From an uncultured delta proteobacterium (lineage in GTDB: Bacteria; Desulfobacterota; Binatia; UBA9968), in NCBI GenBank assembly GCA_963771465.1, contig CAVYTU010000014.1:544001-608000 (forward strand): 64,000 bases of DNA, written 5' to 3'. This document shows, one piece after another, positions 1 to 63,955 of the stretch (its first letter is position 1; every line of letters begins with the position of its first letter). Both the position numbers and the translations under genes were made by a program. Below the pieces are notes generated by a model. That model did no database searches and was not told the origin of the DNA. It saw only the letters and a list, made by a program, of their open reading frames with translations.

Positions 1-817
1 CGCGTTCGAGCGAGCGCGGATCTTGCACCAGAGCATAGAACGGCACGCCATATTCATGCGCCAGCCGCGCCATCGGATAGGTGCCGACCTTGTTGATGAC
101 ATCGCCGTTGCGTGCCGAGCGGTCGGCGCCGACAACCACCGCGTTCACTGCGCCGCGCGCCATCACCTGCGCCACGGCGCAATCGGGGATCAGTGAAACG
201 CTCACCCCCGCTTGCGCTAATTCCCAAGCCGTCAAGCGCGTGCCCTGGAGGTACGGCCGAGTTTCGGTAGCGATGACTGAAAACTCTTTGCCCATCTCCT
301 GACAATACCGCGCTACCGCGACCAGCTCGCCGCTAACGTTGCAATGTGTCAACACGCGCGCCGGATCGGGCAGGACAGCGGCGGCGCGTTTGGCGCGCGC
401 GCTACGCCCACGCATGATCTGCGCGCCGAATTCGCGCGTCTGGCGCGCAATAGTTTCGCCAATCGAATCGTTTGCCGGTAGCTTGTCAAAAAATTCCCCG
501 ACGTAATTGCCTAGACCGCGAAAATCGAAGGTCGGACGAACGTCGCAAAATTGTTGCGTCAGCCGCGCCAGCCGCTCGCGCAGCGGCGCCGGGTCGTTGC
601 CCTCGTACTGCTGCGCCACCATCGCAGCGCTATAGAGAAATGTCAGCACCTGGCCGAAAGCTCGAGTCTTCATCTCGCGCACGGCGTCGAGCGCCTGGAC
701 GACTTCCGTTACCTGGATGTACTCGATCTTTTCGGGAACTTGGATTTCGTCAAGAATCTCGAAGCCTGCGCCGCGCCAGTGCACAGGTTCAAACAGCGGG
801 CTTTCTACTGCGCTCAT
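1..817 (-). CDS. Divergent eIF-2B/MtnA-family sugar-1-phosphate isomerase (runs off left edge; missing from ORF track)
   Basis: Manual translation from ATG 817: MSAVESPLFEPVHWRGAGFEILDEIQVPE...MKTRAFGQ...RPTFDF...VLTHCNVSGEL...TETRPYLQGTRLTAWEL...VVGADRSARNGDVINKVGTY; ETRPxxQG, GAD and NKxGTY are family hallmarks. Confidence 0.85.
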   Translation of the reverse strand, partial: MSAVESPLFEPVHWRGAGFEILDEIQVPEKIEYIQVTEVVQALDAVREMKTRAFGQVLTFLYSAAMVAQQYEGNDPAPLRERLARLTQQFCDVRPTFDFRGLGNYVGEFFDKLPANDSIGETIARQTREFGAQIMRGRSARAKRAAAVLPDPARVLTHCNVSGELVAVARYCQEMGKEFSVIATETRPYLQGTRLTAWELAQAGVSVSLIPDCAVAQVMARGAVNAVVVGADRSARNGDVINKVGTYPMARLAHEYGVPFYALVQDPRSLER

Positions 818-842
818 TTTACCAGCGATCCAATGGAAACGT

Positions 843-1577
843 TTAGAGATATTTAAGCGCTTGGCGCGCCACTTCGATGGTTTTTTGCTCGGCTGCGAAA
901 AACGCCGGATCGCGAAAGCCGAACTTGCCGTACAAGCACTCATCCGACACCGCGAGCACCGCGCCGGCCTTTTTGCCGCGAACTTGGGAAATGGTCAGAA
1001 ACGTCGAGGTCACCATGTCGATGCTTGAGACGTTTTGCTCGTTCAATTGTTGGATCAGCTCGGGCGTCTCTTGGAACAAAGCGTCGGTGGTGAAAATCCA
1101 GCCAAGATGATAACGGACTTTTAGTTCGTCGGCCGCTTGTTTGAGCGCGCTGACGATATCGCCGTGGGCAATAGTGGAAAAACTCTCCGCCACGTAATAG
1201 CGCGACGTGCCGTCGCCGCGCACCGCGCCGGTGACAATGACCAGATCGCCGATCTTGATGTTGTCTTGCAGCGAACCACAGCTGCCAACCCGGATCAGCG
1301 CCTCGACGCCGGCGCCGCAAAGAATCTCCGTGGTAATCGCTGTATCCGGCGCGTAGCGCCCGCCGTTACCGATGCTCACCCGTTTGCCATCGAGCGTACC
1401 GGTATGCATCTCGTAGTCGAGAAAGGTGAAACTCTTTTGCGGACTGTCCAAAAGCTTGAGCAGCAAATCGCTGCGCTCTTTCGGACCCGGGATAAGTGCG
1501 TAGGGACCGAGCGAATTAGGCTTGAGCCCGAGGATGTTGAGCATGCGCTGCGGTGTGAAGTGCGCTTCTTTGACCAT
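843..1577 (-). CDS. Nucleoside phosphorylase (PNP/UDP family 1), divergent
   Basis: LIPG..ER, IRVGSCG, GDLVI, RGDGTS.YY, TTDALF and VSD motifs; the usual EME reads DMV. Confidence 0.85.
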   Translation of the reverse strand: MVKEAHFTPQRMLNILGLKPNSLGPYALIPGPKERSDLLLKLLDSPQKSFTFLDYEMHTGTLDGKRVSIGNGGRYAPDTAITTEILCGAGVEALIRVGSCGSLQDNIKIGDLVIVTGAVRGDGTSRYYVAESFSTIAHGDIVSALKQAADELKVRYHLGWIFTTDALFQETPELIQQLNEQNVSSIDMVTSTFLTISQVRGKKAGAVLAVSDECLYGKFGFRDPAFFAAEQKTIEVARQALKYL

Positions 1578-1580
1578 TGA

Positions 1581-2804
1581 CTAAACAGCCTGAAGAGCGA
1601 ATTCCAGCAAATCTTGCACCGGCAGTCCGGCTGGTTTCAAATCGGCAAACGATCGTTGGCAGAGCGCGCTCGAAGTGAGTACTAATTCCGCGCCGGTTTC
1701 GCGCGCTTCGCGCATGCGATCAGCAGCATTCCACTGCGCCAACTCCGGGTCGGCTTCCGGCACGCCGCCACCGCCACCGCAACACCAAGCCCAGCGCCGA
1801 TTGCGCCCCATTTCGACCAGTTGAATACCCGGGATCGCCCGCAAAATAGTCCGCGGCGCCGCGTAAACGCCGCAGCCGCGGCCAAGGTGGCAGGAGTCGT
1901 GATAGGTAACTTTTTTACCGACCGGCTTGGTGAATTTCAATCGCCCCGCTTGCACCAGCTGTTCGACATACTCGACGCCGTGAATGACCTGGATGTCGGC
2001 GCCCACCTCCTTGGCATACTCGCGCCAGATTCTCTGGCAGCTGCCGCATGCGACGATGACGCGTTCAATGCCGGCATTCTTAAGGGTCGCCAGATTGTCG
2101 TCCTTTAGCCGCTCATACTCGCGGCGAAAGCCGAGATCGAAAGCATAAAGCCCGCAACATTTTTCATCGTCGCCAAGAATTGCAAAATCCTCGCCTGCCC
2201 GTTGCAGCAACTTCGCCAGTGCGATGACGCCGCCACGGCCGCTATCGCGGTCCGCCGAACAGCCGGCAAAGAGCAACGTCGGGGCCTTCGACTCAGCGAC
2301 GTTCTTCACTCCCAAACCATTGGCCCACGCGCCACGCTCAATCTTTGGCTGCGCCCAAGGATTGTCATGCTGCTGAAGTCCAGCGTAGAGCGGTTGATGC
2401 GCTGGAATCGGTCCATCTTTCTCGGTGATCTCCTCGCGCATGGCAACGGTTATATCCCAAGGACCGTAACCGTCGCCGCGCACGCCGCATAACTCCTGAC
2501 ACATGAGACAGCTGGTGCAAGCGTACATTACTTCTTTTAGTTCCGGCGTGATCGCATCGAGACCGTGAAATACTCGCTGTGCCATCAGCCAACGCGACTT
2601 AGGCGTGTGGCGTTGAAATTTATAGAATTCGTAGGGCGGACATTTCTCTTTTGGCCCAGGAACGTCTTCCATCGGATTGGCTGGTCCGTGGCCATAGCAA
2701 GAGCCGCACAAAACGCAACCGCTGCTGCGCTCGTCAAGTCCTTTGGCGTAAAGCCACTGTTTGACTCTTTCGAGCCCGATGGGTTTTTTGCTCTCGTTTT
2801 TCAC
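1581..2804 (-). CDS. Fe-S oxidoreductase, HdrD/GlcF-like (two ferredoxin motifs plus two CCG domains)
   Basis: CxxCxxC...CP, CTSCLMCQELC, CCG, YHDSCHLGR, CCGGGGG; GTG start. Confidence 0.85.
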   Translation of the reverse strand: MKNESKKPIGLERVKQWLYAKGLDERSSGCVLCGSCYGHGPANPMEDVPGPKEKCPPYEFYKFQRHTPKSRWLMAQRVFHGLDAITPELKEVMYACTSCLMCQELCGVRGDGYGPWDITVAMREEITEKDGPIPAHQPLYAGLQQHDNPWAQPKIERGAWANGLGVKNVAESKAPTLLFAGCSADRDSGRGGVIALAKLLQRAGEDFAILGDDEKCCGLYAFDLGFRREYERLKDDNLATLKNAGIERVIVACGSCQRIWREYAKEVGADIQVIHGVEYVEQLVQAGRLKFTKPVGKKVTYHDSCHLGRGCGVYAAPRTILRAIPGIQLVEMGRNRRWAWCCGGGGGVPEADPELAQWNAADRMREARETGAELVLTSSALCQRSFADLKPAGLPVQDLLEFALQAV

Positions 2805-2825
2805 TGGAATACGCCCGCGCTGAAA

Positions 2826-2872
2826 ATAGTTTAAATGTTAACCATTTATAACCCGCCTATATCCGCTGTCAA
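2826..2872 (-). promoter_or_regulatory. sigma70-like promoter with overlapping palindromic operator (probable MarR site)
   Basis: Minus strand TTGACA-N16-TATAAA; imperfect palindrome ATAGTTTAAATGTTAACCAT at 2826-2845 abuts the -10 and covers the start site. Confidence 0.65.
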
Positions 2873-2981
2873 TCAAGTGAGACCTTCGGCTGGAGCAAGT
2901 AGCCGCGAATGCTCGTCAGCAAGCCGCTGCGATCATCTGGAATTGGCAATCTGAAATCGGCGTTATCTTGTGGCCGCGGAG

Positions 2982-3434
2982 CTAATTCGTGGTGGTCGTG
3001 AGATTCAACTTGCGGAGAATTGCCGAGAGCTCTTTCTGTTCGGTTTTGCTCAACCCGGTGAAAATCTGCCCGCAGCTCTTTTCGAATTCGGGAATCGTAC
3101 TCTTATAGAGTTTCGCGCCCCTGTCAGTCAAAACCACGTGCACGACGCGCCGGTCATTGTCGTCGCGCTTGCGCACCACCAGTTTTTTTTCTTCCAGCCG
3201 ATCGACGATGCCGGTTAAGTTGCTCACCGTGACCATCATCTTGGCGCCGATTTCGCCAAACGGCAGGCGGCCGGCATAGCCGATCGTCGCCAACACGTAA
3301 AATTGCGGCGGTGTGAGGGCTAATTTTGCCAGATCGTCTTCGAGTTTTTTATGGGATTGTAAGCTGAAGCGAAGAAAACGAATCCACAGACTGGTTGTAT
3401 AGGTGGTAAAAAAAGGACGTTTGAACCCTGCCAC
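2982..3434 (-). CDS. MarR-family transcriptional regulator
   Basis: LTPPQFYVL...VSNLTGIVDRLEEKKLVVRKRDDNDRRVVHVVLTDRG; GTG 3434 lies 7 nt after TTGCAT-N17-TAGAGT (ORF track starts at 3485). Confidence 0.9.
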   Translation of the reverse strand: MAGFKRPFFTTYTTSLWIRFLRFSLQSHKKLEDDLAKLALTPPQFYVLATIGYAGRLPFGEIGAKMMVTVSNLTGIVDRLEEKKLVVRKRDDNDRRVVHVVLTDRGAKLYKSTIPEFEKSCGQIFTGLSKTEQKELSAILRKLNLTTTTN

Positions 3435-3593
3435 ACGTGTGACTCTAAACGCAGCGAGGTGAAAATGCAACTTCGCGGCGCTCAATCAAAGTCACGGTGA
3501 CGACGATTGAACGGTCGGTTGCATCCTCATGTTCGATCGTCGTATTGAATACGCAGACGAGCCAGTGGATTTCCTTTAAGAACTGGAAATATA

Positions 3594-4328
3594 ATGAAAC
3601 TTCACATTCTCGGCTGTGGTGATGCCTTCGGCAGCGGCGGCCGCAATCAGAGCGGCTATTTAGTGGAAGCCAGCGACCGAATGTTTTTGCTCGATTGTGG
3701 ACCGACGAGCCTCCTCGCCATGAAGCGCGCGAAGATCGATCCGCGCCGACTGGACGCAATAATTCTCAGCCATTTGCACGGCGATCACTTTGGCGGCATT
3801 CCGTTTTTCTTCATCGAATATCTCTATCAGCAGCCGAGAGAAAAACCGTTGACCATCGCCGGCCCGCCCGGCACGGAAGCGAAAGTGCGACAACTTTTCC
3901 AGCTCATGTATGGCAACGCGACCAACGACAGGGAACTCCCGCCGATAGGCTTCGAGACTTTGTATCCCGATCAGCCCGCGCGCATCGAAGGCATTGAAGT
4001 GTTGCCGTTTCGCGTGCCCCATCAGAGCCACGAGATATCGCTGGGCTTGAAAGTTATTCATGATGATAAGCTGCTGCTTTTTTCCGGCGACTCGGCGTGG
4101 ACGGAGAGTTTTATTGAACAAGCGCGCGGCGTCGATTTATTTCTCTGCGAGTGTTCGTTTTACGATGAACAACCGGGCATGCATCTCAATTACCAAGTTT
4201 TGCGGGCGAATTTATCGCGCTTTGAGTGCAAGCAATTATTTCTCACCCATCTTGGCGACCAGATGCTGGATCGTCGCGACCGACTGGCTGTAAAAACGGT
4301 TGACGATGGAATGGTGATCGAATTTTAA
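3594..4328 (+). CDS. MBL-fold metallo-hydrolase (RNase Z/BN-like)
   Basis: LGCGDAFGSGGR, LDCG, SHLHGDHFGG, SGD, THL. Confidence 0.85.
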   Translation: MKLHILGCGDAFGSGGRNQSGYLVEASDRMFLLDCGPTSLLAMKRAKIDPRRLDAIILSHLHGDHFGGIPFFFIEYLYQQPREKPLTIAGPPGTEAKVRQLFQLMYGNATNDRELPPIGFETLYPDQPARIEGIEVLPFRVPHQSHEISLGLKVIHDDKLLLFSGDSAWTESFIEQARGVDLFLCECSFYDEQPGMHLNYQVLRANLSRFECKQLFLTHLGDQMLDRRDRLAVKTVDDGMVIEF

Positions 4329-47765: not shown

Positions 47766-48548
47766 ATGCAAATCACCCTCACCACTGACTTCGGCCAGCA
47801 AGATCCCTATGTTGGTCTGATGAAAGGTGTGATCGCCGCGATTAATCCCGAGGCGCAGGTAATCGACTTGAGCCATGGTGTGCCGCCGCAAAACATCATG
47901 GCTGCTGGATTAATCCTGCAGCATTCGATCCGTTATTTTCCCGCCGGCACGATCCATGTTGTGGTCGTAGACCCTGGTGTAGGCAGCAGCCGGCGGCCGA
48001 TTTTGATCGAGTTTGACGAAAGTTACTTTATCGGCCCCGATAACGGCGCGCTGAGCGTCGCGTTCGAGCGCAAACAACCGAGCCAAATCATTCATCTGTC
48101 CAACCCGACATTTCACCTACAGACGATTAGCACGACGTTTCACGGCCGCGATATTTTCGCTCCGGTAGCGGCTCATTTGTCGCTCGGCGTTCCGGTCGAA
48201 GAATTTGGCGAAAAGCTCGAGTCATTCGTCGAGTTGGTGGTACCAAAAATCATCCGGCAAGAGCAGCAGATCAATGGGGAGATTGTCTACGTCGACAGCT
48301 TTGGCAATCTGTTTACAAACATTCGCCAGCGTGATTTGACAGGGTTGGCGAAAGATCAGTTGCGAATTATCCTCGAGTCGACCGAAATTGGCGGTTTGGC
48401 AGCCAATTACGCTTCGGTGGTCGCCGGCGAGTTCGCATGTCTATTCAACAGCTGGGGGTATCTCGAGATCGCCGTAAACAAAGGCAATGCGCACCAGCGT
48501 ACCGGCGCCAAGGTCGGCGATAAAGTCGCGGTTGCGAGTAAAAATTAG
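47766..48548 (+). CDS. SAM hydroxide adenosyltransferase (DUF62/halogenase superfamily)
   Basis: TTDFG, VVDPGVGS.RR, GPDNG, TFHGRDIFAP, DSFGN. Confidence 0.92.
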   Translation: MQITLTTDFGQQDPYVGLMKGVIAAINPEAQVIDLSHGVPPQNIMAAGLILQHSIRYFPAGTIHVVVVDPGVGSSRRPILIEFDESYFIGPDNGALSVAFERKQPSQIIHLSNPTFHLQTISTTFHGRDIFAPVAAHLSLGVPVEEFGEKLESFVELVVPKIIRQEQQINGEIVYVDSFGNLFTNIRQRDLTGLAKDQLRIILESTEIGGLAANYASVVAGEFACLFNSWGYLEIAVNKGNAHQRTGAKVGDKVAVASKN

Positions 48549-48565
48549 CTTACCAAAGGTTGATT

Positions 48566-49027
48566 ATGAGCGAGCGGCTAAGTTGGGATCAATACTTCAT
48601 GACGATCACCTTGCAGGTGGCCGAGCGCTCTACCTGCACTCGTGCAAAAGTCGGCGCGGTAATCGTGCGCGACAAAAACATCCTTGCCACCGGCTATAAC
48701 GGCGCACCGGCGGGCATGCCCCATTGCACTGATGTCGGCTGTTTGGTTTACGAATCGAAAACCCCGAACGGCGAAACCGAGCAGAATTGCTTTCGCACCA
48801 TCCATGCCGAGATGAATGCGATCGCCCAAGCAGCGAAAAATGGCTCTACCATCAAAGACGGCGCTATCTATATAACCCATACGCCGTGTATTCATTGTCT
48901 AAAAGTGCTCGTCAATACCGGAATCAAAGAAATATTCTATTTAAAGCCCTATAAACTCCACACCCTGGAAGAATTGCTACGCTATACACAAGTCCATCTC
49001 TACCCGGTTCAGTTGCCCTGCGAATAA
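48566..49027 (+). CDS. dCMP deaminase family protein (ComEB-like)
   Basis: RSTC.R..VGA, TGYNG, HAEMNA, PCIHC. Confidence 0.92.
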   Translation: MSERLSWDQYFMTITLQVAERSTCTRAKVGAVIVRDKNILATGYNGAPAGMPHCTDVGCLVYESKTPNGETEQNCFRTIHAEMNAIAQAAKNGSTIKDGAIYITHTPCIHCLKVLVNTGIKEIFYLKPYKLHTLEELLRYTQVHLYPVQLPCE

Positions 49028-52600: not shown

Positions 52601-53944
52601 ATGCCTGACATTTGGAATGAAGCCCTTGGGCAAATAAAAGAGCGGATTGGTAAGCAAAACTTTGACACGTGGATCAAGCCTACTTGTTTTGCCCTTCGAA
52701 GCAAGAACGAGATCGTTCTCGAAGTCCCCAATAAATTTTTTCGTGATTGGCTGACCGAACATTATCTCGCAGATATTGAAACTGTGCTGACGTCGATCAG
52801 CAAGAATGATCTGGTTGTGACTTTTGAGATCAATCCCAAGCTCGAACAACAATCACCGACGGCGAAAATGGCAAAAAAACCGGACAAAGAGCCTGATCGT
52901 CCGGCGCAAACCAGCCATAGCCTTATCACGAAGTATACCTTCGAAAACTTCGTTATAGGTGCTAGCAACCAATTTGCCCATGCGGCTTGCATGGCGGTCG
53001 CAAATCAACCGGGTGAACATTACAATCCACTATTTATTTACGGCGGCGTCGGTCTCGGCAAGACCCATTTGGTCAACGCCATCGGTCATCGCGCGGTGGC
53101 GCAACGATCAAATCTGAAAATCGTTTATCTTAGTTCCGAATCGTTCATGAACGAGCTCATCGCGTCGCTTCGGCGCGATAAAATGGACGAATTCAAGAAA
53201 AAGTTTCGTAACGTCGACGTGCTCCTCGTCGACGATGTGCAATTCATCGCCGGCAAGGAAAGAACCCAAGAAGAGTTTTTTCATACATTTAACTCACTTT
53301 ACGAATCACATAAGCAAATCGTCATCACCTCGGATAAATTTCCCAAGGAGATTCCCGGTCTCGAGGATCGCTTGCGCAACCGATTCGAATGGGGCTTGAT
53401 CGCCGATATCCAGAGCCCTGATATGGAAACTCGGGTAGCAATCCTGCAGAAAAAGGCTGAAATTGAAGGCGTGCAGCTACCCCATGACGTGGCGATTTTC
53501 CTAGCCTCGAACATCGACTCCAACGTGCGCGAGCTGGAAGGATCGCTTACTCGCCTCGGCGCTTTTTCTTCCTTGACCAAGACTGCGATCACGGTCGAAT
53601 TCGCCAAAGAAGTTTTGCGTCAGAACCTAAAGAGCGCGGAAAGAGACGTCACCGTCGAAGGTATTCAGAAAACGATTTGCGAATATTTCAATATCAAGAT
53701 GGGCGATCTTAAAGCAAAAAGACGAACTCAGAACATCGCATTGCCACGCCAAGTCGCCATGTATCTCTGCCGAAAACACACCGAAACATCTTTTCCTGGC
53801 ATCGGTGATAAGTTTGGCGGCCGCGATCACTCCACCGTTATCCACGCCTCGAAGACAATTGAACGCAAAATAAAGGAAGATCCGCACATGCTCACCACAA
53901 TCGAAAAACTCGAAAGAAACTTAAACCTCAGGAAAAAGCTGTGA
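52601..53944 (+). CDS. dnaA: Chromosomal replication initiator DnaA
   Basis: YTFENFV, GGVGLGKTHL, DDVQF, NVRELEG, RDHSTV. Confidence 0.99.
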   Translation: MPDIWNEALGQIKERIGKQNFDTWIKPTCFALRSKNEIVLEVPNKFFRDWLTEHYLADIETVLTSISKNDLVVTFEINPKLEQQSPTAKMAKKPDKEPDRPAQTSHSLITKYTFENFVIGASNQFAHAACMAVANQPGEHYNPLFIYGGVGLGKTHLVNAIGHRAVAQRSNLKIVYLSSESFMNELIASLRRDKMDEFKKKFRNVDVLLVDDVQFIAGKERTQEEFFHTFNSLYESHKQIVITSDKFPKEIPGLEDRLRNRFEWGLIADIQSPDMETRVAILQKKAEIEGVQLPHDVAIFLASNIDSNVRELEGSLTRLGAFSSLTKTAITVEFAKEVLRQNLKSAERDVTVEGIQKTICEYFNIKMGDLKAKRRTQNIALPRQVAMYLCRKHTETSFPGIGDKFGGRDHSTVIHASKTIERKIKEDPHMLTTIEKLERNLNLRKKL

Positions 53945-54140
53945 ATAAGCTGTGGCTAACCGGCAAGTTTATTGTTGAGGTCTGTGGGCTAAACGTGTTG
54001 TCCGGTATCGCTCAGTGAACAGCAGAAGTAGCGATTGAAATAAACCACAAGCTACCCCGCCGATAATTATAGACAAACGCGTTTGTCTACCTTGTGCACA
54101 GCCCCTACTATTACTCCTAATTTTTATATATATAGAAAGA
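53940..54140. other. oriC part 2 with basal unwinding system (DnaA boxes, GC-rich motif, DnaA-trios, AT-rich tract)
   Basis: TGTGAATAA, TGTGGCTAA, TTATAGACA, then TTGTGCACA-GCCCC-TACTATTACTCCTAA-TTTTTATATATATA. Confidence 0.85.
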
Positions 54141-54163
54141 AACAGAAGAGGTAGGGAGGAAGT

Positions 54164-55270
54164 ATGGAAATTAAAGCTAAGCGGGGAGATCTTCTCGCAA
54201 CGCTTTATTGGACACAAAGTATCGTGGAACGGCGCAATACTATGCCGATTCTTGCCAACGTCCTAATCGAAGCGCAAAGAGGCGATATTCGCCTCACAGC
54301 CACCGACTTAGAGGTGGGAGTAAGAGGACAAGTCGAGGGTGAGGTTGTTAAAGAGGGAACGATTACGGTCAGCGCCAAGAAGCTTTACGAGATCGTTCGT
54401 GAGGTACCCAACGATCAGGTTCAAATAAAACGGTTGGAAAATGATTGGGTGGAAATTCGTAGTGGCAAGTCGGTTTTTAAGATCGTCGGTATGGACGCCA
54501 AAGAGTTTCCCCAATTTCCGAAGTTCGATAGCAAGGGTTTGTCGAGTATGCCAGCTTCGACAATCCGGGAAATGATCGAGCGCACGATTTTCTCAGTTTC
54601 AACCGACGAGACTCGTTATAGCTTAAACGGGGTATATATCGAACAAAACGAAGGCGGAAAAGTAAGAATGGTGGCCACGGACGGTCATCGGCTGGCTTTT
54701 GAAGAGAAAGATGTTGGCGCGTTAGGCTTGACCAAGGGCGTGATCCTGCCACGTAAAGGTTTGTCTGAGCTCAAGAAATTATTGGAGAACGGCGAGGATG
54801 GCGTTGTCTCGCTGGGCTTCAAGGAGACCATGGGGCTGGTCATCAAGGATAAAGTTGAACTGTTCATGCGTTTGATTGACGGCGACTTTCCGGACTATAC
54901 AAAGGTAATTCCCAAAGGGAACCCCAATATCGCCAAACTTGATCATGACGAGTTGCTCCAGGCGTTGCGTCGCGTGTCGATTCTTTCCAGCGAACGTTAC
55001 AAGGGCGTGCGGATGGAATTTTCCGACAGCAAGGTTTCGATTTCGGCGAATAATCCGGATTTAGGCGAGGCGGTCGAAGATATTGAAGCCGAGTATAAGG
55101 GAAAAGCGATATCGATCGGTTTCAACGCCCGTTACATGATCGATGTTTTGGGCGTTCTCACGGGTGACGGCGAGATTGATATCGAGCTGAAGGATGAACT
55201 AAGCCCCAGCGTGATTCGTAAAAACGGCGTTGACGATTATCTTTATGTGCTGATGCCGATGAGATTGTAA
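54164..55270 (+). CDS. dnaN: DNA polymerase III beta clamp
   Basis: PILANVL, ATDLE, ATDGHRLA, FNARY, VLMPMRL. Confidence 0.98.
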   Translation: MEIKAKRGDLLATLYWTQSIVERRNTMPILANVLIEAQRGDIRLTATDLEVGVRGQVEGEVVKEGTITVSAKKLYEIVREVPNDQVQIKRLENDWVEIRSGKSVFKIVGMDAKEFPQFPKFDSKGLSSMPASTIREMIERTIFSVSTDETRYSLNGVYIEQNEGGKVRMVATDGHRLAFEEKDVGALGLTKGVILPRKGLSELKKLLENGEDGVVSLGFKETMGLVIKDKVELFMRLIDGDFPDYTKVIPKGNPNIAKLDHDELLQALRRVSILSSERYKGVRMEFSDSKVSISANNPDLGEAVEDIEAEYKGKAISIGFNARYMIDVLGVLTGDGEIDIELKDELSPSVIRKNGVDDYLYVLMPMRL

Positions 55271-58868: not shown

Positions 58869-59579
58869 TCAATTCGACTTGCGAAACTTTTTCGCGCGGC
58901 GGACGAAATACTCCCACATCGATTCCAACCGGTGCGGCGTGTAGATCTGCTCGTACTTGATGGCGGCTTCGGCATCGCTGGTCCAGGAGGGATCGCCCGA
59001 TGCGGTGGCCATGAGCTGAATGCGCGCCGCTTTTTCTAAGAAAATTGCATACAGGGTGGCGACTTCGATGGATTCACCCACCACCGTCGAACCGTGATTT
59101 TTCATCAGCACGCCGCGGTATTTGCCCAGGCTTTTGGCGACTTCGACACCCAATTCCTGGGTGCGAATGAGCGCTGTCGTGTAGTCGAAAGTCGGCAGCC
59201 CTTCGTAGAAAATATTCCCTTCGTGGCTGATCGGGCGCAGTTTTTGACCTAAAGCGCCAAAAGCCGTCGCATAGGGAGGATGCGAGTGCACTACGCAGTT
59301 CACATCCTTGCGAGCTTTCATAATCTCGGTGTGTATGAAGACTTCGGAATGGCGTTCGTATTTACCGTCTGTCTTTTTACCCGTCGCGATATCGACCACG
59401 ATGATATGCTGCGGGCGGATTTCTTCGAAACCGAAGCTATGCGGCTTCATGAGGATCTTGTTCTGCCCCGGAACTCGCACCGAAACATGGCCGAGGATGT
59501 TGTCCCAGTGACCTTCGTGAGCGAGTATGTTGCACGAATAAGCGAGATTTTCTTTGAGCTCTTTGATGCTGGCGGCCAT
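58869..59579 (-). CDS. Class II aldolase/adducin family protein
   Basis: GHVSVR, SEVFIHTEI..AR.DV..VVHSHP, MKNHG. Confidence 0.9.
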   Translation of the reverse strand: MAASIKELKENLAYSCNILAHEGHWDNILGHVSVRVPGQNKILMKPHSFGFEEIRPQHIIVVDIATGKKTDGKYERHSEVFIHTEIMKARKDVNCVVHSHPPYATAFGALGQKLRPISHEGNIFYEGLPTFDYTTALIRTQELGVEVAKSLGKYRGVLMKNHGSTVVGESIEVATLYAIFLEKAARIQLMATASGDPSWTSDAEAAIKYEQIYTPHRLESMWEYFVRRAKKFRKSN

Positions 59580-59601
59580 TTTAACTCCGGTTCTTTGATC
59601 C

Positions 59602-61146
59602 TCAGTTATTGTTAGCTCGCAGTCGGAATCTTTGGATCTTGCCCGTTACCGTTTTCGGCAGGTCATCGACGAATTCGACCCAGCGGGGATATTTGTACGG
59701 TTGCAGTTTACTCTTGACGTGACTTTGTAACTCGACTTTGAGCTCATCACTGGCTTTGTATTCGCTCTTGAGCAGAATATAGGCTTTCGGCTTGAGCAAA
59801 CCGTCGGCGTCTTCCTCAGCCACCACGCCGGATTCCAGCACTGCCGGGTGTTCCATTAAAGTGTTTTCAATTTCAATAGGGGAAACCCACAGGCCGCCGA
59901 CTTTCATCATGTCGTCGGAGCGACCGCAGTACCAGTAGTAGCCTTCGGCGTCGCGATAATAAGTGTCACCGGTCTTAAGCCACTCGCCTTGCATCATTCT
60001 TTTGGTTTGCTCGTGCTTGTTCCAATAATACGGCGCGGTGGCGTCGCCTTTGACCATCAAACTGCCGACTTCACCGATGGGCAATTCGCGGCCGTCGTCG
60101 TCGACGACCTTGGCTTCGAACGCCGGGGTCACTTCACCGCTGCTGCCGGCTTTCGCCCGGCCCGGGCGATTGGCGAGAAAGTCATGGGTCGCTTCGGTGG
60201 AGCCGACGACGTCGAGGAGTTCCAAACCGGTGCGCTCTTTCCATTGGTGAAACAGCGCCGGCGGCAACGGTTCGCCGGAAGAAAGGCAAATGCGCAGTGA
60301 ACTTAAGTCGTATTTCTTCTCGATCCGCAGGAAGCGGGCGAAGAGAGTCGGGACGGAGAAAAAGAAAGTCGGTTTGTACTTGTCGATGACCTGGAGAATC
60401 TTTTCCGGGTCGGGTTTTTCCGGCCACAGCACGGTCGACGCGCCGAAACGAAATGGGAAGTAGAGCGAATTACCCAAGCCGTAGGAAAAAAACATTTTCG
60501 ACGCCGAGAAGCAGAGATCGTTCTCGTTCATGTGCAACACCGGCTCGACGAACAGATCACTGATGGTGATCATGTCGTGCTGCAAATGCACGGCGCCCTT
60601 GGGATTCCCCGTGCTTCCTGAAGTGTAACCCCAGAAGCAGACATCGTCTTTCAGTGTTTTCGCCGCTTCCAGCTTATCCGAGGCTTTGGCGATTAAGTTT
60701 CCATACGATAACGCTTTGCCCTTCGGCGTGCCGACGACGATGACGTGTGTCAAAAATGGCGTCTTGTCCCAGATCTTTTCGATCTCGGGCAAGGCTGTTT
60801 CGTGGACGATGATGGCGCGGGCGCGGCTGTCGTTGATTAAGTATTCGTAATCCTTAGCGAACATCCAAGGATTGGTCGGCACGGCGACGGCGCCAATCTT
60901 GATCGCGCCGAAGAAGCTATAAGCGAATTCCGGTGAGTCGGGCAGAATTACCAGCACGCGCTGCTCGATCTCGATGCCGAGATCTTTCAGTGCATTGCCG
61001 GTTCGATTGACCTTCTCGAAAACTTCTTGGTAGGTGATCTTTTGATCTTGGTAGTAGATCGCGATCTTGCCGCCACGACCCTGTTTGATGTTTTCATCAA
61101 CGAAGGTCGTGGCGGCGTTGTAGATGTCTGGAAGGTCTACTTTCAT
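59602..61146 (-). CDS. Benzoate-CoA ligase family protein
   Basis: YNAA, YTSGSTGNPKG, K.FF.YGLGN, GSTE, TGD, GRSDDMMKVGG.WVSP, PKTVTGKIQRF. Confidence 0.9.
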   Translation of the reverse strand: MKVDLPDIYNAATTFVDENIKQGRGGKIAIYYQDQKITYQEVFEKVNRTGNALKDLGIEIEQRVLVILPDSPEFAYSFFGAIKIGAVAVPTNPWMFAKDYEYLINDSRARAIIVHETALPEIEKIWDKTPFLTHVIVVGTPKGKALSYGNLIAKASDKLEAAKTLKDDVCFWGYTSGSTGNPKGAVHLQHDMITISDLFVEPVLHMNENDLCFSASKMFFSYGLGNSLYFPFRFGASTVLWPEKPDPEKILQVIDKYKPTFFFSVPTLFARFLRIEKKYDLSSLRICLSSGEPLPPALFHQWKERTGLELLDVVGSTEATHDFLANRPGRAKAGSSGEVTPAFEAKVVDDDGRELPIGEVGSLMVKGDATAPYYWNKHEQTKRMMQGEWLKTGDTYYRDAEGYYWYCGRSDDMMKVGGLWVSPIEIENTLMEHPAVLESGVVAEEDADGLLKPKAYILLKSEYKASDELKVELQSHVKSKLQPYKYPRWVEFVDDLPKTVTGKIQRFRLRANNN

Positions 61147-61176
61147 CCGCACATGTAATCTGGAATAGCCGAAGGC

Positions 61177-62646
61177 TTATTCCCCGCCGATAATTTCTCC
61201 CCCGACATCCGTGGCGATGACGACGGATTTCGAATCGGTGTAGTGCTCGATCGCTTCGTCGCCATGTTCTTTGCCCAGACCGCTCTGCTTGACGCCGCCG
61301 AAGGGTAGCTCGTCGTAAATAATCTGCGCCGAGTTGACCCAAGTATAACCAGCTTCGATGTTCTCCGCGCCGTACATGGCGCGGTTGATATCGCGCGTCC
61401 AGATCGACGAGCCGAGACCGAAGATTGAGCTATTGGCGTGCTCGATGGCTTGGTCCAGGGTCTTTACGCGGACGATTGGCAGCGCCGGACCGAACACTTC
61501 TTCCTGGATCATGCGCGAAGCGGGGTCGACGTCAGCGACTATGGTCGGTTGCAAGTAGTACCCTTTGTCGTACTCATCGCCTTTGGGCCGTTGGCCGCCG
61601 AAGACGAGTTTGCCACCACGTTTGACCGCGTCTTCGACCTGCTCTTCGACTTCCTGGCGCTGTTCCTTAGTATGCAATGGACCCATCAGCACACCGGCCT
61701 TGAGGCCGTTGCCGATGCTGATCTTCTTGGCTTTCTCGGCGAGCTTGACGATAAAGTCATCGGCGATGCTGTCGAACAGATAGAGCCGCTTGACCGCCAA
61801 GCAAGCTTGGCCGCAATTGAAAAAGCGGCCCACTGAGGCGGCGCTGACGGCGCGATCGATATCGGCGTCGTCGCAGACAATCATCGGATCGCTACCACCG
61901 AGTTCCAACGTCACATGCTTGAAATCCTTCGCCGCGGACTGCATGACTCGCCGGCCAGTGTCGGTGGCGCCGGTGAAGCCGATTTTTCTCACGGTTGGAT
62001 TGACGAGTAATTCCTCGCCGACCACGCTGCCGGGACCGGAGACGACATTTAATACGCCTTTCGGTCCTCCAGCGTCTTGGATCGCTTTATCGATGATCTC
62101 ACAGGTGCGCAGATCGGTAAGCGGTGTCGTGCCCGCGGGTTTAACCACCACGCAATTTCCCGCCAGCAGCGCTGGACCGAGCTTGTTGCCCATCAGTGAA
62201 ACCGGAAAATTCCACGGCACGATGGAGCCGCAAACCCCGAGCGGTTTACGCAGGACGAGACCGTGTCTCCCTGTGTCGAGCATGACCGCGCTGGTGCGCA
62301 TGGTTTTGGCCATGCCCCCGTAGTGATCGAGCGTGTGCACGAAGCGGCGGATTTCCAAAATCGACTCGCGCATTGGCTTGCCCTGTTCTTTGGTCAGCAA
62401 GGTGGCGAGCTCTTTTTCCTGTTGCAGAATCGTGTGGCCGGCGGCCAACAAAACCGCGCCGCGCTTCGATGGCGCCATGGTGGACCATTTTTTTAACGCG
62501 CCTTGGGCGGCGTCGATGGCGCGGCGGATGTCATTGATGGTGCCTTTGGGGACGCTGTCGACCAGTTCTCCGGTGGCCGGATTGCGGACTTCGGTGGTTT
62601 GGCCGCTTTCGGAATCGACCTGCTCACCGGCAATTAACATCTTCAT
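61177..62646 (-). CDS. NAD(P)-dependent aldehyde dehydrogenase
   Basis: GAGGAGG RBS; PWNFP, FTGAT, LELGG, GQAC, EEVFGP, PFGGVKQSG. Confidence 0.95.
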   Translation of the reverse strand: MKMLIAGEQVDSESGQTTEVRNPATGELVDSVPKGTINDIRRAIDAAQGALKKWSTMAPSKRGAVLLAAGHTILQQEKELATLLTKEQGKPMRESILEIRRFVHTLDHYGGMAKTMRTSAVMLDTGRHGLVLRKPLGVCGSIVPWNFPVSLMGNKLGPALLAGNCVVVKPAGTTPLTDLRTCEIIDKAIQDAGGPKGVLNVVSGPGSVVGEELLVNPTVRKIGFTGATDTGRRVMQSAAKDFKHVTLELGGSDPMIVCDDADIDRAVSAASVGRFFNCGQACLAVKRLYLFDSIADDFIVKLAEKAKKISIGNGLKAGVLMGPLHTKEQRQEVEEQVEDAVKRGGKLVFGGQRPKGDEYDKGYYLQPTIVADVDPASRMIQEEVFGPALPIVRVKTLDQAIEHANSSIFGLGSSIWTRDINRAMYGAENIEAGYTWVNSAQIIYDELPFGGVKQSGLGKEHGDEAIEHYTDSKSVVIATDVGGEIIGGE

Positions 62647-62806
62647 AAGGGTCCTCCTCAAATCTTCTGTGAGACCTAAGAGAAAAATCATGTTCATAGA
62701 TCGAAGTCAACAATTCGCGCCGTTGAATGAGACTGATAGATAGCAACCTTGCTGCTAGCGTTCGTCATGACGGCTGTGATAATGGAAACACAACAAGGGA
62801 GATAAG

Positions 62807-63955
62807 ATGGCACGCAATGGTTTTAAAATCTTCGATGCTGACACTCATGTCAGGCCGGATGCCGACTTATTAATGCCGTACATGGCGGCGGCGGCGCGGG
62901 AAAAGTTGGCGCAGTTTGAAAAATACCAAGCGCGCAACAAGGACGGCGCGGTAACCTATTTAATGGGGGAGCGCAGTTACAAGCGCCGGTTAGGACTCGC
63001 CGGCGACGGCGCGCCCGAGAGCACGGAATATATGAGCGGTTACAAGCGCCACCAGCATGGCAAGCCTAACCCACTCTGCGAGCGCGACGCCGCGGTGCGC
63101 ATCTCGGACATGGAGATTGAAGGCATCGATGTGAACTTGATGCTGCCCTCCGGTTGGTTCGGCTGCTGGACGACGATCGATGATATTGAGCTGGAAACCG
63201 CTGTGTATGAAGCCTATCACCGCTGGATGGCGGATTACTGCGCGGCTTTTCCGAGCCGGCTGAAAGGCGTAATCGCCATCGGCGCGCGAAACGTCGCGGC
63301 TTCACTGGAAGAGTTGCACCGTTGTGCCCAAGAAAATTGGCCGCTCGCCGTTTTCGTCTATGCGCCTTATCAGTTTCCACTGGATCATCCAGACTTGGAG
63401 CCGATCTGGCAAGCAGCGGCAGACTACGATCTGTCGATTGCGCTGCACACATTTACCGTCATGCCGCCCTACGCTCCCGGCGGTTTGGATTCCTGGGACA
63501 ATCTTTGGCTGCAAAGATCGGCGGCCCATCCCTGGTGCGGCCAGCGCAACATGGCATCGATCATCGGCGCCGGCATTATGGACCGCTATCCGAATATTCG
63601 CGTCGGTACTTTGGAAGCGGGCCATGGCTGGTTGCCGGCATGGGTCAATCGGCTCGAAGAACACACCAAGCTTTGTCCGGAGGCGCTGCCGGCGCTCAAA
63701 GAAACCATTCGCGGCTACGTCACCGGCGGACGCTACTTTCAGAGCATCGAAGTCTCCGAAGGCGAAGCGATTACCCAGAGCGTTATCGATCTGCTCGGCC
63801 CGGACATTCTCATGTTTGGCTCCGATTATCCGCACGGCGAAAGTTGGTTTCCAGTCGCCGTCGAAACCGTGCTCGGCTGGAAGCTCAAGGAAGACGACAA
63901 GCGAAAAATCTTTTGGGACAACCCCGTGAAATACTACCGGCGCTATTCGGCATGA
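62807..63955 (+). CDS. Amidohydrolase_2 family protein
   Basis: DADTH, D.EGID, RYP..R...LEAGHGW, GSDYPH.ES. Confidence 0.88.
   Translation: MARNGFKIFDADTHVRPDADLLMPYMAAAAREKLAQFEKYQARNKDGAVTYLMGERSYKRRLGLAGDGAPESTEYMSGYKRHQHGKPNPLCERDAAVRISDMEIEGIDVNLMLPSGWFGCWTTIDDIELETAVYEAYHRWMADYCAAFPSRLKGVIAIGARNVAASLEELHRCAQENWPLAVFVYAPYQFPLDHPDLEPIWQAAADYDLSIALHTFTVMPPYAPGGLDSWDNLWLQRSAAHPWCGQRNMASIIGAGIMDRYPNIRVGTLEAGHGWLPAWVNRLEEHTKLCPEALPALKETIRGYVTGGRYFQSIEVSEGEAITQSVIDLLGPDILMFGSDYPHGESWFPVAVETVLGWKLKEDDKRKIFWDNPVKYYRRYSA

Follow-up and report, generated by a model that had tools for sequence, protein, structure and literature searches.

A conserved operon of uncultured soil bacteria with diverged nucleoside phosphorylase and MtnA-like isomerase paralogues: a possible trimming module for a radical-SAM-derived nucleoside

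Which metabolite is handled by an operon that places an iron-sulfur (Fe-S) protein of the HdrD/GlcF/GlpC type, a nucleoside phosphorylase and an MtnA-like sugar-1-phosphate isomerase behind a MarR-family regulator? The question is raised by the left end of a 64,000-nucleotide stretch of DNA (G000:C14:544001-608000, termed the window), where G000 is our label for the source genome, whose completeness is 99.4%. The operon is real, conserved and uncharacterised, and belongs to uncultured soil bacteria; a full-text literature search, whose coverage did not include subscription journals, turned up no paper describing the module. Our preferred reading, to which we assign a probability of roughly 45%, is a module akin to the dihydroxyacetone phosphate (DHAP) shunt. 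It would trim a 5'-substituted, probably hydrophobic nucleoside derived from a radical S-adenosylmethionine (SAM) enzyme to DHAP and an acid activated by a ligase, and its Fe-S protein, here called the CCG protein after its domains, would serve a flavoprotein encoded at a second, distant locus (locus B).

Open reading frames (ORFs) together with Pfam and NCBIfam scans place the genes in question on the minus strand throughout. The gene order is MarR with its operator, CCG protein, phosphorylase, isomerase, aldolase-SCP2 fusion, ligase, small ORF and phosphopantetheinyl transferase (PPTase) (Table 1). An earlier note on this DNA, made from the sequence alone, had described tightly packed genes with gaps of 3 and 25 bp adjacent to a MarR gene. 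Direct reading of the sequence reproduces this exactly: 3 bp separate the stop codon of the CCG gene from the ATG of the phosphorylase gene, and 25 bp separate the stop codon of the latter from the ATG of the isomerase gene. The note had also held that the operon runs past the left edge of the window and had proposed looking there for an aldolase. Both proposals are borne out, since the remainder of the isomerase gene and those of the aldolase, ligase, small ORF and PPTase are read there, and a class II aldolase gene directly follows that of the isomerase. The small ORF has no match in either Pfam or NCBIfam.

The phosphorylase and the isomerase are paralogues and not the housekeeping set. Canonical copies are encoded elsewhere in the genome, MtnP at G000:C17:988910-989629 (322.5 bits, cut-off 274.85) and MtnA at G000:C10:85286-86317 (446.8 bits, cut-off 279). 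The operon phosphorylase fails the MTAP/MtnP equivalog TIGR01694 with 16.8 bits (cut-off 274.85), its best NCBIfam match being uridine phosphorylase (135 bits, cut-off 280). The operon isomerase fails the MtnA equivalog TIGR00512 with 229.1 bits (cut-off 279) and passes the broad eIF-2B_rel model alone (196.2 versus 185.85). Thus, neither enzyme groups with canonical MtnP or MtnA, and the altered sugar-site motifs that the note had seen in both proved in alignments to be real hallmarks of their subfamilies. In the phosphorylase, the motif DM(V/I)(T/S)S, present in 13/13 family members, aligns to FEMES/ADMET of solved uridine phosphorylases. The second Glu of the (E/D)-M-E ribose motif, which we take to bind the ribose 2'/3'-hydroxyls, is replaced by Val here (D-M-V/I in all 13), and Arg and Ser are retained at the positions aligned to the phosphate site. 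This subfamily is small, with 35 representatives at E<=1e-30 among 1.84 billion proteins; the top full-length matches have a hydrophobic residue at the Glu position and lower-ranked matches the canonical Glu. The isomerase retains Cys and Asp at the positions that align with the HCN and GADR motifs of MtnA. It lacks the 7-residue loop after CN, and RGAPAIG has become TRAFGQV. The ribose-site Glu and the active-site loop are altered in all members, and in other families the extra domain of the isomerase stands by itself as an ORF of ~155 aa. We also observed that a radical SAM gene on the same strand (Pfam match C17:988136-988639) immediately precedes the canonical MtnP gene, and that the canonical MtnA gene is flanked by genes for an AcpS-type PPTase and a protein of the GCS2 glutamate-cysteine ligase family (L034 6440-9647, corresponding to G000:C10:84440-87647).

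What these enzymes would do is suggested by their families, from which we infer the order of the steps. The natural reading of the families agrees with the chemistry proposed in the note, from nucleoside through sugar-1-phosphate to ketose-1-phosphate. In the first step the phosphorylase would strip the base off a 5'-substituted nucleoside of the 5'-deoxyadenosine type, and the isomerase would convert the resulting sugar-1-phosphate into a ketose-1-phosphate. The aldolase would cleave the latter into DHAP and an aldehyde R-CH2-CHO; the aldehyde would then be oxidised and the acid activated by the ligase as a thioester. The nearest known scheme, as set out in PMC6079011 and PMC12632272, is the DHAP shunt or disposal of 5-deoxyribose, in which MtnP, or MtnN with MtnK/DrdK, is followed by MtnA/DrdI and Ald2/DrdA. 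Like the operon, it combines base removal, isomerisation by an enzyme of the IF-2B/MtnA fold and class II aldolase cleavage to DHAP and an aldehyde, with the genes side by side (PMC6079011, PMC12632272). The operon phosphorylase is of the hexameric uridine phosphorylase/DeoD type, not MtnP, and has no ribose-site Glu, and the isomerase scores below the MtnA cut-off, has no 7-residue loop and carries an extra half-domain. Moreover, the operon adds an SCP2-fused aldolase, a fatty-acyl-type ligase, the PPTase, the CCG protein and MarR, in a genome that retains canonical MtnP and MtnA besides.

The whole gene row is intact in 10/10 genome loci of close relatives (CCG identity 75-85%). We also surveyed 80 metagenome loci with a phosphorylase identity of 77-99%, counting a gene only where the flank was long enough. 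In these, the CCG gene lies directly upstream of the phosphorylase gene in 53/53 loci, and the isomerase (48/48), aldolase (36/36) and ligase (27/27) genes are equally constant. MarR is found in 40/41 loci, the PPTase in 21/23 and the small ORF in 17/23, being missing in 6; radical SAM, aldehyde dehydrogenase (ALDH), MMPL, LolA-like or DUF1302 genes occur in 0/80. The metagenome scan, made with the phosphorylase alignment, retained close relatives only (77-99% identity) and yielded no new distant contexts. Beyond the close relatives we analysed a class sample of 151 genomes, consisting of G000 and 8 others of family f1, 2 of family f100, 8 of family f99 and 132 remaining genomes. The phosphorylase is present in 8/8 f1 genomes besides G000, in 2/2 of f100, in 4/8 of f99 and in 0/132 others, and the CCG-phosphorylase-isomerase trio occurs in all 8 other f1 genomes. 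The sister-family genome G342 (f100) has the order MarR-phosphorylase-isomerase (502 aa)-aldolase (197 aa)-ligase without a CCG gene. In G408 the isomerase is truncated, and f99 genomes have phosphorylase remnants only; in one of them (L133 8549-9646) a DDE_3 transposase gene sits between the phosphorylase and a short aldolase, a sign of decay.

In a phylum sample of 301 genomes, searched for the isomerase subfamily at E<=1e-55, 12 further genomes were recovered. One of them, G291, belongs to f1 and the other 11 to other families, in which phosphorylase and isomerase are 38-47% identical to those of the operon and the aldolase is SCP2-fused. Two of these 11 loci are short contigs, and the misses include these. 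The isomerase is found in 11/11, the phosphorylase in 10/11 and the aldolase in 7/11, accompanied by a B12-binding, BchE-like radical SAM enzyme in 8/11, MMPL, LolA-like and ligase genes in 6/11 each, ALDH in 5/11, and CCG and MarR in 0/11. Thus, the gene-neighbourhood comparison that the note had proposed finds synteny well past the close relatives, from the 10 close loci and the metagenomes to sister and other families. The CCG protein, which the note had treated as part of the trio, is not part of the conserved core but an addition of a single family, being absent from G342 and from 11/11 cassettes of other families. In one of these loci, L026, a PPTase gene was also observed within the cassette.

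The recurrent radical SAM gene has a counterpart in G000. Its orthologue (41.5% identity over the full length; the next-best match in the genome has 25%) lies at C14:748865-750379, 200 kb off and outside the window. The genes beside it, which form locus B together with it, encode a short-chain dehydrogenase/reductase (SDR), a FAD_binding_4 flavoprotein, a Haem_oxygenase_2/CADD-like protein and an O-methyltransferase. In the class sample, 10 genomes have the complete phosphorylase-isomerase module, namely G000, 8 other f1 genomes and G342. G000, G342 and 7/8 of the other f1 genomes carry the radical SAM orthologue. In G309, which is 96% complete and has the complete module, it was not found. 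Among the 141 class-sample genomes without a complete module, including G408, the f99 genomes (0/8) and the remaining 132, it is found in none. G000 has 22 radical SAM genes. Since the module follows one of these 22, and MtnP and MtnA are also present, general disposal of 5'-deoxyadenosine is unlikely as its function. We infer that a specific product of one radical SAM enzyme explains the module better: the substrate would be the product of one BchE-like B12 radical SAM enzyme rather than free 5'-methylthioadenosine (MTA) or 5'-deoxyadenosine.

The opposite possibility deserves to be set out, since the described shunt matches the operon in its three reaction types and in gene order, and the E. 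coli shunt is likewise under a repressor (PMC6079011 and PMC12632272 for the former, PMC12632272 for the latter). An extended shunt would convert the ordinary SAM by-products 5'-deoxyadenosine and/or MTA into DHAP and acetaldehyde or 2-(methylthio)acetaldehyde, with subsequent oxidation and activation with coenzyme A (CoA). It would either keep radical SAM enzymes uninhibited or exploit the nucleosides as a carbon source. That the module adjoins the gene of a radical SAM enzyme, a producer of 5'-deoxyadenosine, in other families fits this explanation, as does the finding that no MtnN-type nucleosidase was found in the 99.4%-complete genome. We nevertheless consider it unlikely, with perhaps one chance in a few, in view of the canonical MtnP and MtnA already in the genome, the association with one of 22 radical SAM genes, the conserved SCP2 fusion and the changes of ribose-site Glu and active-site loop in every member. 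Moreover, the ligase is closest to the long-chain fatty-acid type and not to acetyl-CoA synthetase. Even if correct, this explanation would amount to an undescribed, regulated and CoA-yielding extension of the DHAP shunt.

The preferred reading, a module trimming a radical-SAM-derived nucleoside, includes the suggestion that the substituent R is hydrophobic, which comes from the SCP2 fusion of the aldolase. In the aldolase, H91, H93, H152 and E73, which are Zn and catalytic positions, are invariant in 9/9 aligned sequences. A profile of its C-terminal domain (9 sequences) recovers 11 PDB sequences at E<=1, mostly SCP2 proteins or SCP2-like domains; the matches to solved SCP2 range from 4.2e-5 to 1.3e-3, the best two being 4.2e-5 and 4.5e-5. 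The Atlas look-alikes of the domain are SCP2 clusters (score 0.90), and the orthologue in L028 scores 33.7 bits on Pfam SCP2, above the cut-off. The ligase is nearest to long-chain fatty-acid ligases, with 413 bits on PRK06187, which is below the cut-off. It is the SCP2 resemblance of the aldolase that suggests a hydrophobic R. Taken together, the recurring partners, namely SCP2 fusion, ligase, PPTase, B12 radical SAM enzyme, ALDH and MMPL/LolA-like export proteins, point to the trimming of an endogenous, probably hydrophobic nucleoside that derives from a radical SAM enzyme.

The same partners bear on a reading along the lines of the earlier note, in which the operon would be induced through MarR and would catabolise a free nucleoside of foreign origin and non-standard type (deoxy, arabino, 2'-O-methyl or similar), with a GlcDF-like enzyme oxidising a C2/C3 cleavage product. 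They speak against it, and we now regard it as improbable. Its attractions are the conserved MarR control, the replaced ribose-binding Glu, the 0/80 family loci with radical SAM, ALDH or MMPL genes, which set the operon apart from biosynthetic clusters, and the model-based support for a GlcD-like partner of the CCG protein. However, gene calls and Pfam find neither a transporter nor a nucleoside-binding protein within the operon, and the CCG gene is lacking in the otherwise complete operon of G342 as well as in each of the 11 cassettes from other families. Plain catabolism would leave the SCP2 domain, the ligase and the PPTase without a role. Finally, isomerisation and FucA-type cleavage should need free 2'-, 3'- and 4'-hydroxyls, which would exclude 2'- or 3'-deoxy and 2'-O-methyl sugars.

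Like HdrD, GlcF and GlpC, the CCG protein is built from a pair of 4Fe-4S motifs ahead of a pair of CCG domains. It belongs to no named equivalog (GlcF, GlpC, DsrK, TfrB, LdhH or HdrB): all of its 12 NCBIfam matches are below cut-off, TfrB being the best (138.2 versus 385), and a PDB search matches only a 1042-aa Fe-S reductase and HdrB. It is confined to family f1, where it occurs in 9/9 genomes and 53/53 metagenome loci. Eight distant homologues (28-36% identity) hint at its partners, as 4 neighbour FAD_binding_4 proteins or are fused with them and 3 are fused to a NarI-like cytochrome b, the contig of the remaining one being too short to judge. Within the operon, neither a partner flavoprotein nor a cytochrome b is encoded next to the CCG gene. 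The note had proposed looking left of the window for a GlcD-like subunit binding flavin adenine dinucleotide (FAD); such a partner is probable, but its gene lies 200 kb away and not at the left edge.

This candidate is the flavoprotein of locus B (C14:751286-752770), whose nearest PDB relatives are p-cresol methylhydroxylase, vanillyl-alcohol oxidase (VAO) and GlcD; a FAD-oxidase_C match is absent from its Pfam results. CCG protein and flavoprotein share the same phyletic pattern, being present in G000 and 8/8 other f1 genomes and in 0/142 others including G342. The flavoprotein, SDR, CADD-like and methyltransferase genes form a stable block even where the radical SAM gene is elsewhere. A complex prediction for flavoprotein and CCG protein scores 0.87, compared to 0.00 for the best of 3 controls; the mark used for this score is reached by 116/157 solved complexes and 2/215 mismatched pairs. 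Contact agreement between runs is at least 76%, and the predicted local distance difference test (pLDDT) of the partner is at least 88. The predicted interface joins CCG residues 17-110, the ferredoxin-like N-terminal part, to the FAD domain. This prediction supports, but does not show, that the two proteins bind. Fer4 plus two CCG domains and a predicted ferredoxin-FAD interface recall GlcD/GlcF and the fused YdiJ-type dehydrogenases composed of FAD_binding_4, Fer4 and CCG parts, except that here the genes are 200 kb apart and the flavoprotein is nearest to p-cresol methylhydroxylase/VAO. Our prediction for the CCG protein is that it transfers electrons as the Fe-S subunit of a VAO/GlcD-type flavoprotein, and the pair would carry out a redox step, possibly the one that ALDH performs in the other families.

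Alternatively, the CCG protein might serve another flavoprotein or a membrane cytochrome, or act as an HdrD-like disulfide reductase on a thiol product, while being merely co-transcribed. The cytochrome b fusions of 3/8 distant homologues and the 8 other FAD_binding_4 genes of the genome would agree with this, and a single ancestral gain could yield the shared phyletic pattern. The 3-bp gap to the phosphorylase gene, the fixed position in 53/53 loci, the identical distribution of CCG protein and locus-B flavoprotein and the difference between 0.87 and 0.00 in the complex prediction all argue the other way, and we therefore think this alternative somewhat unlikely.

Operon and locus B may also be joined into a single, more far-reaching scheme, which we put forward tentatively and hold to be doubtful as a whole. 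A B12 radical SAM enzyme would put the 5'-deoxyadenosyl group of SAM on a hydrophobic, perhaps phenolic acceptor, and phosphorylase, isomerase and aldolase would trim it to a two-carbon extension made of C5' and C4'; this would be oxidised and passed on as an acyl thioester, with redox chemistry by a flavoprotein/Fe-S dehydrogenase split over two loci. If true, the adenosyl group would serve biology as a carbon donor in a third way, besides hopanoids and futalosine, and here for the first time to give a C2-extended acid. More generally, if the preferred reading is correct, SAM-derived nucleosides are building blocks as well as waste. Dedicated DHAP-shunt paralogues would then convert a radical-SAM adduct into an acyl unit extended by C2, from which these abundant uncultured bacteria of soil could build unusual lipids or start polyketides. 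What is new here is the sister-family operon without CCG, the unlinked radical SAM orthologue that co-occurs with the complete module, and the matched phyletic pattern of CCG protein and flavoprotein together with their predicted binding.

A number of points weigh against the preferred reading. The chemical steps, from substrate to product, are all proposed from the enzyme families. In family f1 the radical SAM gene and the module are separated by 200 kb or fall on different contigs, so that they are not linked, and their co-occurrence concerns mostly one clade, whose genomes are not independent. Moreover, the orthologue in G342 (G342:C1:13930-15396) has one in-frame TAG, a second sign of decay in the sister families. 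We know of no B12 radical SAM enzyme of the BchE type that transfers a 5'-deoxyadenosyl group, and the adenosyl-adding enzymes HpnH and MqnE have no B12 domain. No ALDH is encoded in the operon, and VAO/GlcD-type flavoproteins are, to our knowledge, not oxidisers of aldehydes. As for hydrophobicity, the C-terminal ~125 residues of the aldolase itself reach 17.7 bits on Pfam SCP2, below the cut-off of 21.3, and the 197-aa aldolase of G342, the sole complete module of the sister family, has no SCP2 domain. The genome encodes 8 further FAD_binding_4 proteins and 4 further CCG proteins, and the complex test can also be passed by relatives of a genuine partner. Finally, the RNA-library contigs that match the operon (see below) may derive from DNA carry-over.

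Two known pathways use the adenosyl group of SAM in a way that resembles the scheme above. In hopanoid synthesis the radical SAM enzyme HpnH joins 5'-deoxyadenosyl to a lipid and HpnG, a member of the purine nucleoside phosphorylase (PNP) family, removes adenine, which provides a precedent for a lipid-nucleoside substrate (PMC13459092). The system at hand differs in that its radical SAM partner is BchE-like with a B12 domain and in that the ribose would be trimmed to a two-carbon stub. Adenosylhopane itself was rejected as the substrate: the 99.4%-complete genome has no match to squalene-hopene cyclase TIGR01507, and its best match to HpnH TIGR03470 is 48.4 bits, compared to a cut-off of 225. 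The phosphorylase scores 23.8 bits on the HpnG model (cut-off 187). In the same source, a 2026 review of lipid-modifying radical SAM enzymes (PMC13459092), the word 'aldolase' has 0 occurrences, and MqnE is described there as using the adenosyl of SAM as a carbon donor.

In the futalosine route to menaquinone, as in our scheme, the adenosyl group first donates carbon and then loses its base. The base is removed by MqnB, an enzyme of the PNP_UDP_1 family, and the later steps consist of a second radical SAM cyclisation, not of isomerase and aldolase. Membership of the operon in this pathway was rejected, as the phosphorylase reaches 21.2 bits on the futalosine hydrolase model TIGR03664 (cut-off 124.7). 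Weak family matches had also prompted us to ask whether the flavoprotein, SDR or radical SAM enzyme of locus B might epimerise the ribose at its 2' position, as DprE1/DprE2 do, or deoxygenate it in the manner of AprD4/AprD3. Both ideas were dropped, because isomerase and aldolase should need the 2'-, 3'- and 4'-hydroxyls and because the Val motif also occurs in cassettes without those genes.

How the operon is controlled can be read from the region upstream of the CCG gene. It has a -35 element TTGACA (2867-2872), a 16-nt spacer and a -10-like TATAAA (2845-2850), after which follow the palindromes GTTAAC (2837-2842) and TTTAAA (2830-2835); taken as one 14-mer, 10/14 of their positions are self-complementary. 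The promoter and operator palindrome that the note had described are thus present, and an alignment of the window with 9 relatives shows the -35 and -10 blocks and the TTAAC/GTTAA dyad to be conserved, although a strict sigma-70-like promoter scan of 1-3800 called 0 sites and an inverted-repeat scan at seed 6 found 0 repeats in the control region. The elements were accordingly called by sequence reading and conservation, not by the strict scans. Terminator-like sites number 5, compared to 5.4 expected, and all lie within genes, so that they are uninformative. The palindromes overlap the likely transcription start and form a putative MarR operator, and MarR most likely would repress at the TTAAC/GTTAA dyad until it binds a ligand. 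TTGACA followed by TTAAC-N2-GTTAA also precedes the phosphorylase gene of G342, and MarR is likewise found upstream in its family f100, which has no CCG gene. MarR control is older than the insertion of the CCG gene between operator and phosphorylase gene. On the other side of MarR we observed a divergent gene for a metallo-beta-lactamase (MBL)-fold protein resembling RNase Z or cyclic-nucleotide phosphodiesterases (window 3594-4328). It adjoins MarR in 8/10 close loci, one of the remaining two having no room; it lies ~2 kb from MarR in G291 and within ~7 kb of the phosphorylase remnant in f99.

Table 1. Coordinates of the control region and the genes of the operon. Plain numbers are window positions; the other coordinates refer to contig C14 of G000.
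Feature	Coordinates	Strand	Details
MarR-family regulator	2982..3434	-	150 aa from GTG 3434; open frame to 3485; Pfam MarR PF01047 60.4 bits, cut-off 24.6
Intergenic control region	2805..2981	-	177 bp between MarR and CCG gene
HdrD/GlcF/GlpC-type Fe-S protein (CCG protein), Fer4_8 + 2xCCG	1581..2804	-	407 aa; Pfam CCG 98.7 bits (2 stretches), Fer4_8 28.2 bits
Hexameric-type PNP_UDP_1 nucleoside phosphorylase	843..1577	-	244 aa; Pfam 115 bits
MtnA-like sugar-1-phosphate isomerase, first 272 codons	2..817	-	ATG 817; runs beyond the left edge
Isomerase, whole	G000:C14:543300-544817	-	505 aa; MtnA-like part + second, partial IF-2B-like domain; Pfam IF-2B 193.8 bits, 2 stretches
Class II aldolase with C-terminal SCP2-like domain	G000:C14:542302-543297		331 aa; Pfam Aldolase_II 134.2 bits
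AMP/CoA ligase, fatty-acyl-type	G000:C14:540797-542326		25-nt overlap with aldolase gene
Small ORF	G000:C14:540400-540774		124 aa, or ~101 aa from second Met
HetI/Sfp-type PPTase	G000:C14:539588-540307		

Confirmed relatives in metagenome contigs number at least 554, and 14 DNA runs labelled soil, rhizosphere or groundwater contain half or more of the sampled words. RNA-library contigs from 4 metatranscriptome studies match the operon at >=99% identity. One of them, 499 nt long (1333-1831), spans the junction of the CCG and phosphorylase genes, and the RNA-library contigs give no cover at 2881-3000 or 3481-3600.

Some features of the surrounding DNA were recorded as well. At 58869-63955 of the window a minus-strand set encodes an ALDH (61177-62697), an AMP-binding ligase (59602-61152) and a 236-aa protein of the class II aldolase family (58869-59579), which is nearest to unnamed aldolase-II subfamilies and 3,4-dihydroxyphthalate decarboxylase; an Amidohydro_2 gene on the plus strand (62807-63955) adjoins this set. 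It resembles a unit for the catabolism of aromatic acids more than a part of the operon. At 47766-49027 a gene resembling SAM hydroxide adenosyltransferase/(R)-SAM hydrolase (198 bits versus a cut-off of 350) is followed by one of the cytidine/deoxycytidylate deaminase family, which places a candidate SAM-to-adenosine enzyme within 45 kb of the operon. The genes dnaA and dnaN are adjacent (window 52601-55270), so that the region of the chromosomal replication origin probably falls within the window. On the other side, beyond the PPTase gene, L002 5647-9495 (G000:C14:534647-538495) encodes a PaoABC-like molybdo-flavo-iron-sulfur oxidoreductase set consisting of a 2Fe-2S subunit with a Tat signal, a further subunit and a large subunit, of which the 2Fe-2S subunit was assigned by Pfam scan and the rest read from translations. 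The large subunit is split into three overlapping ORFs and is either frameshifted or mis-assembled.

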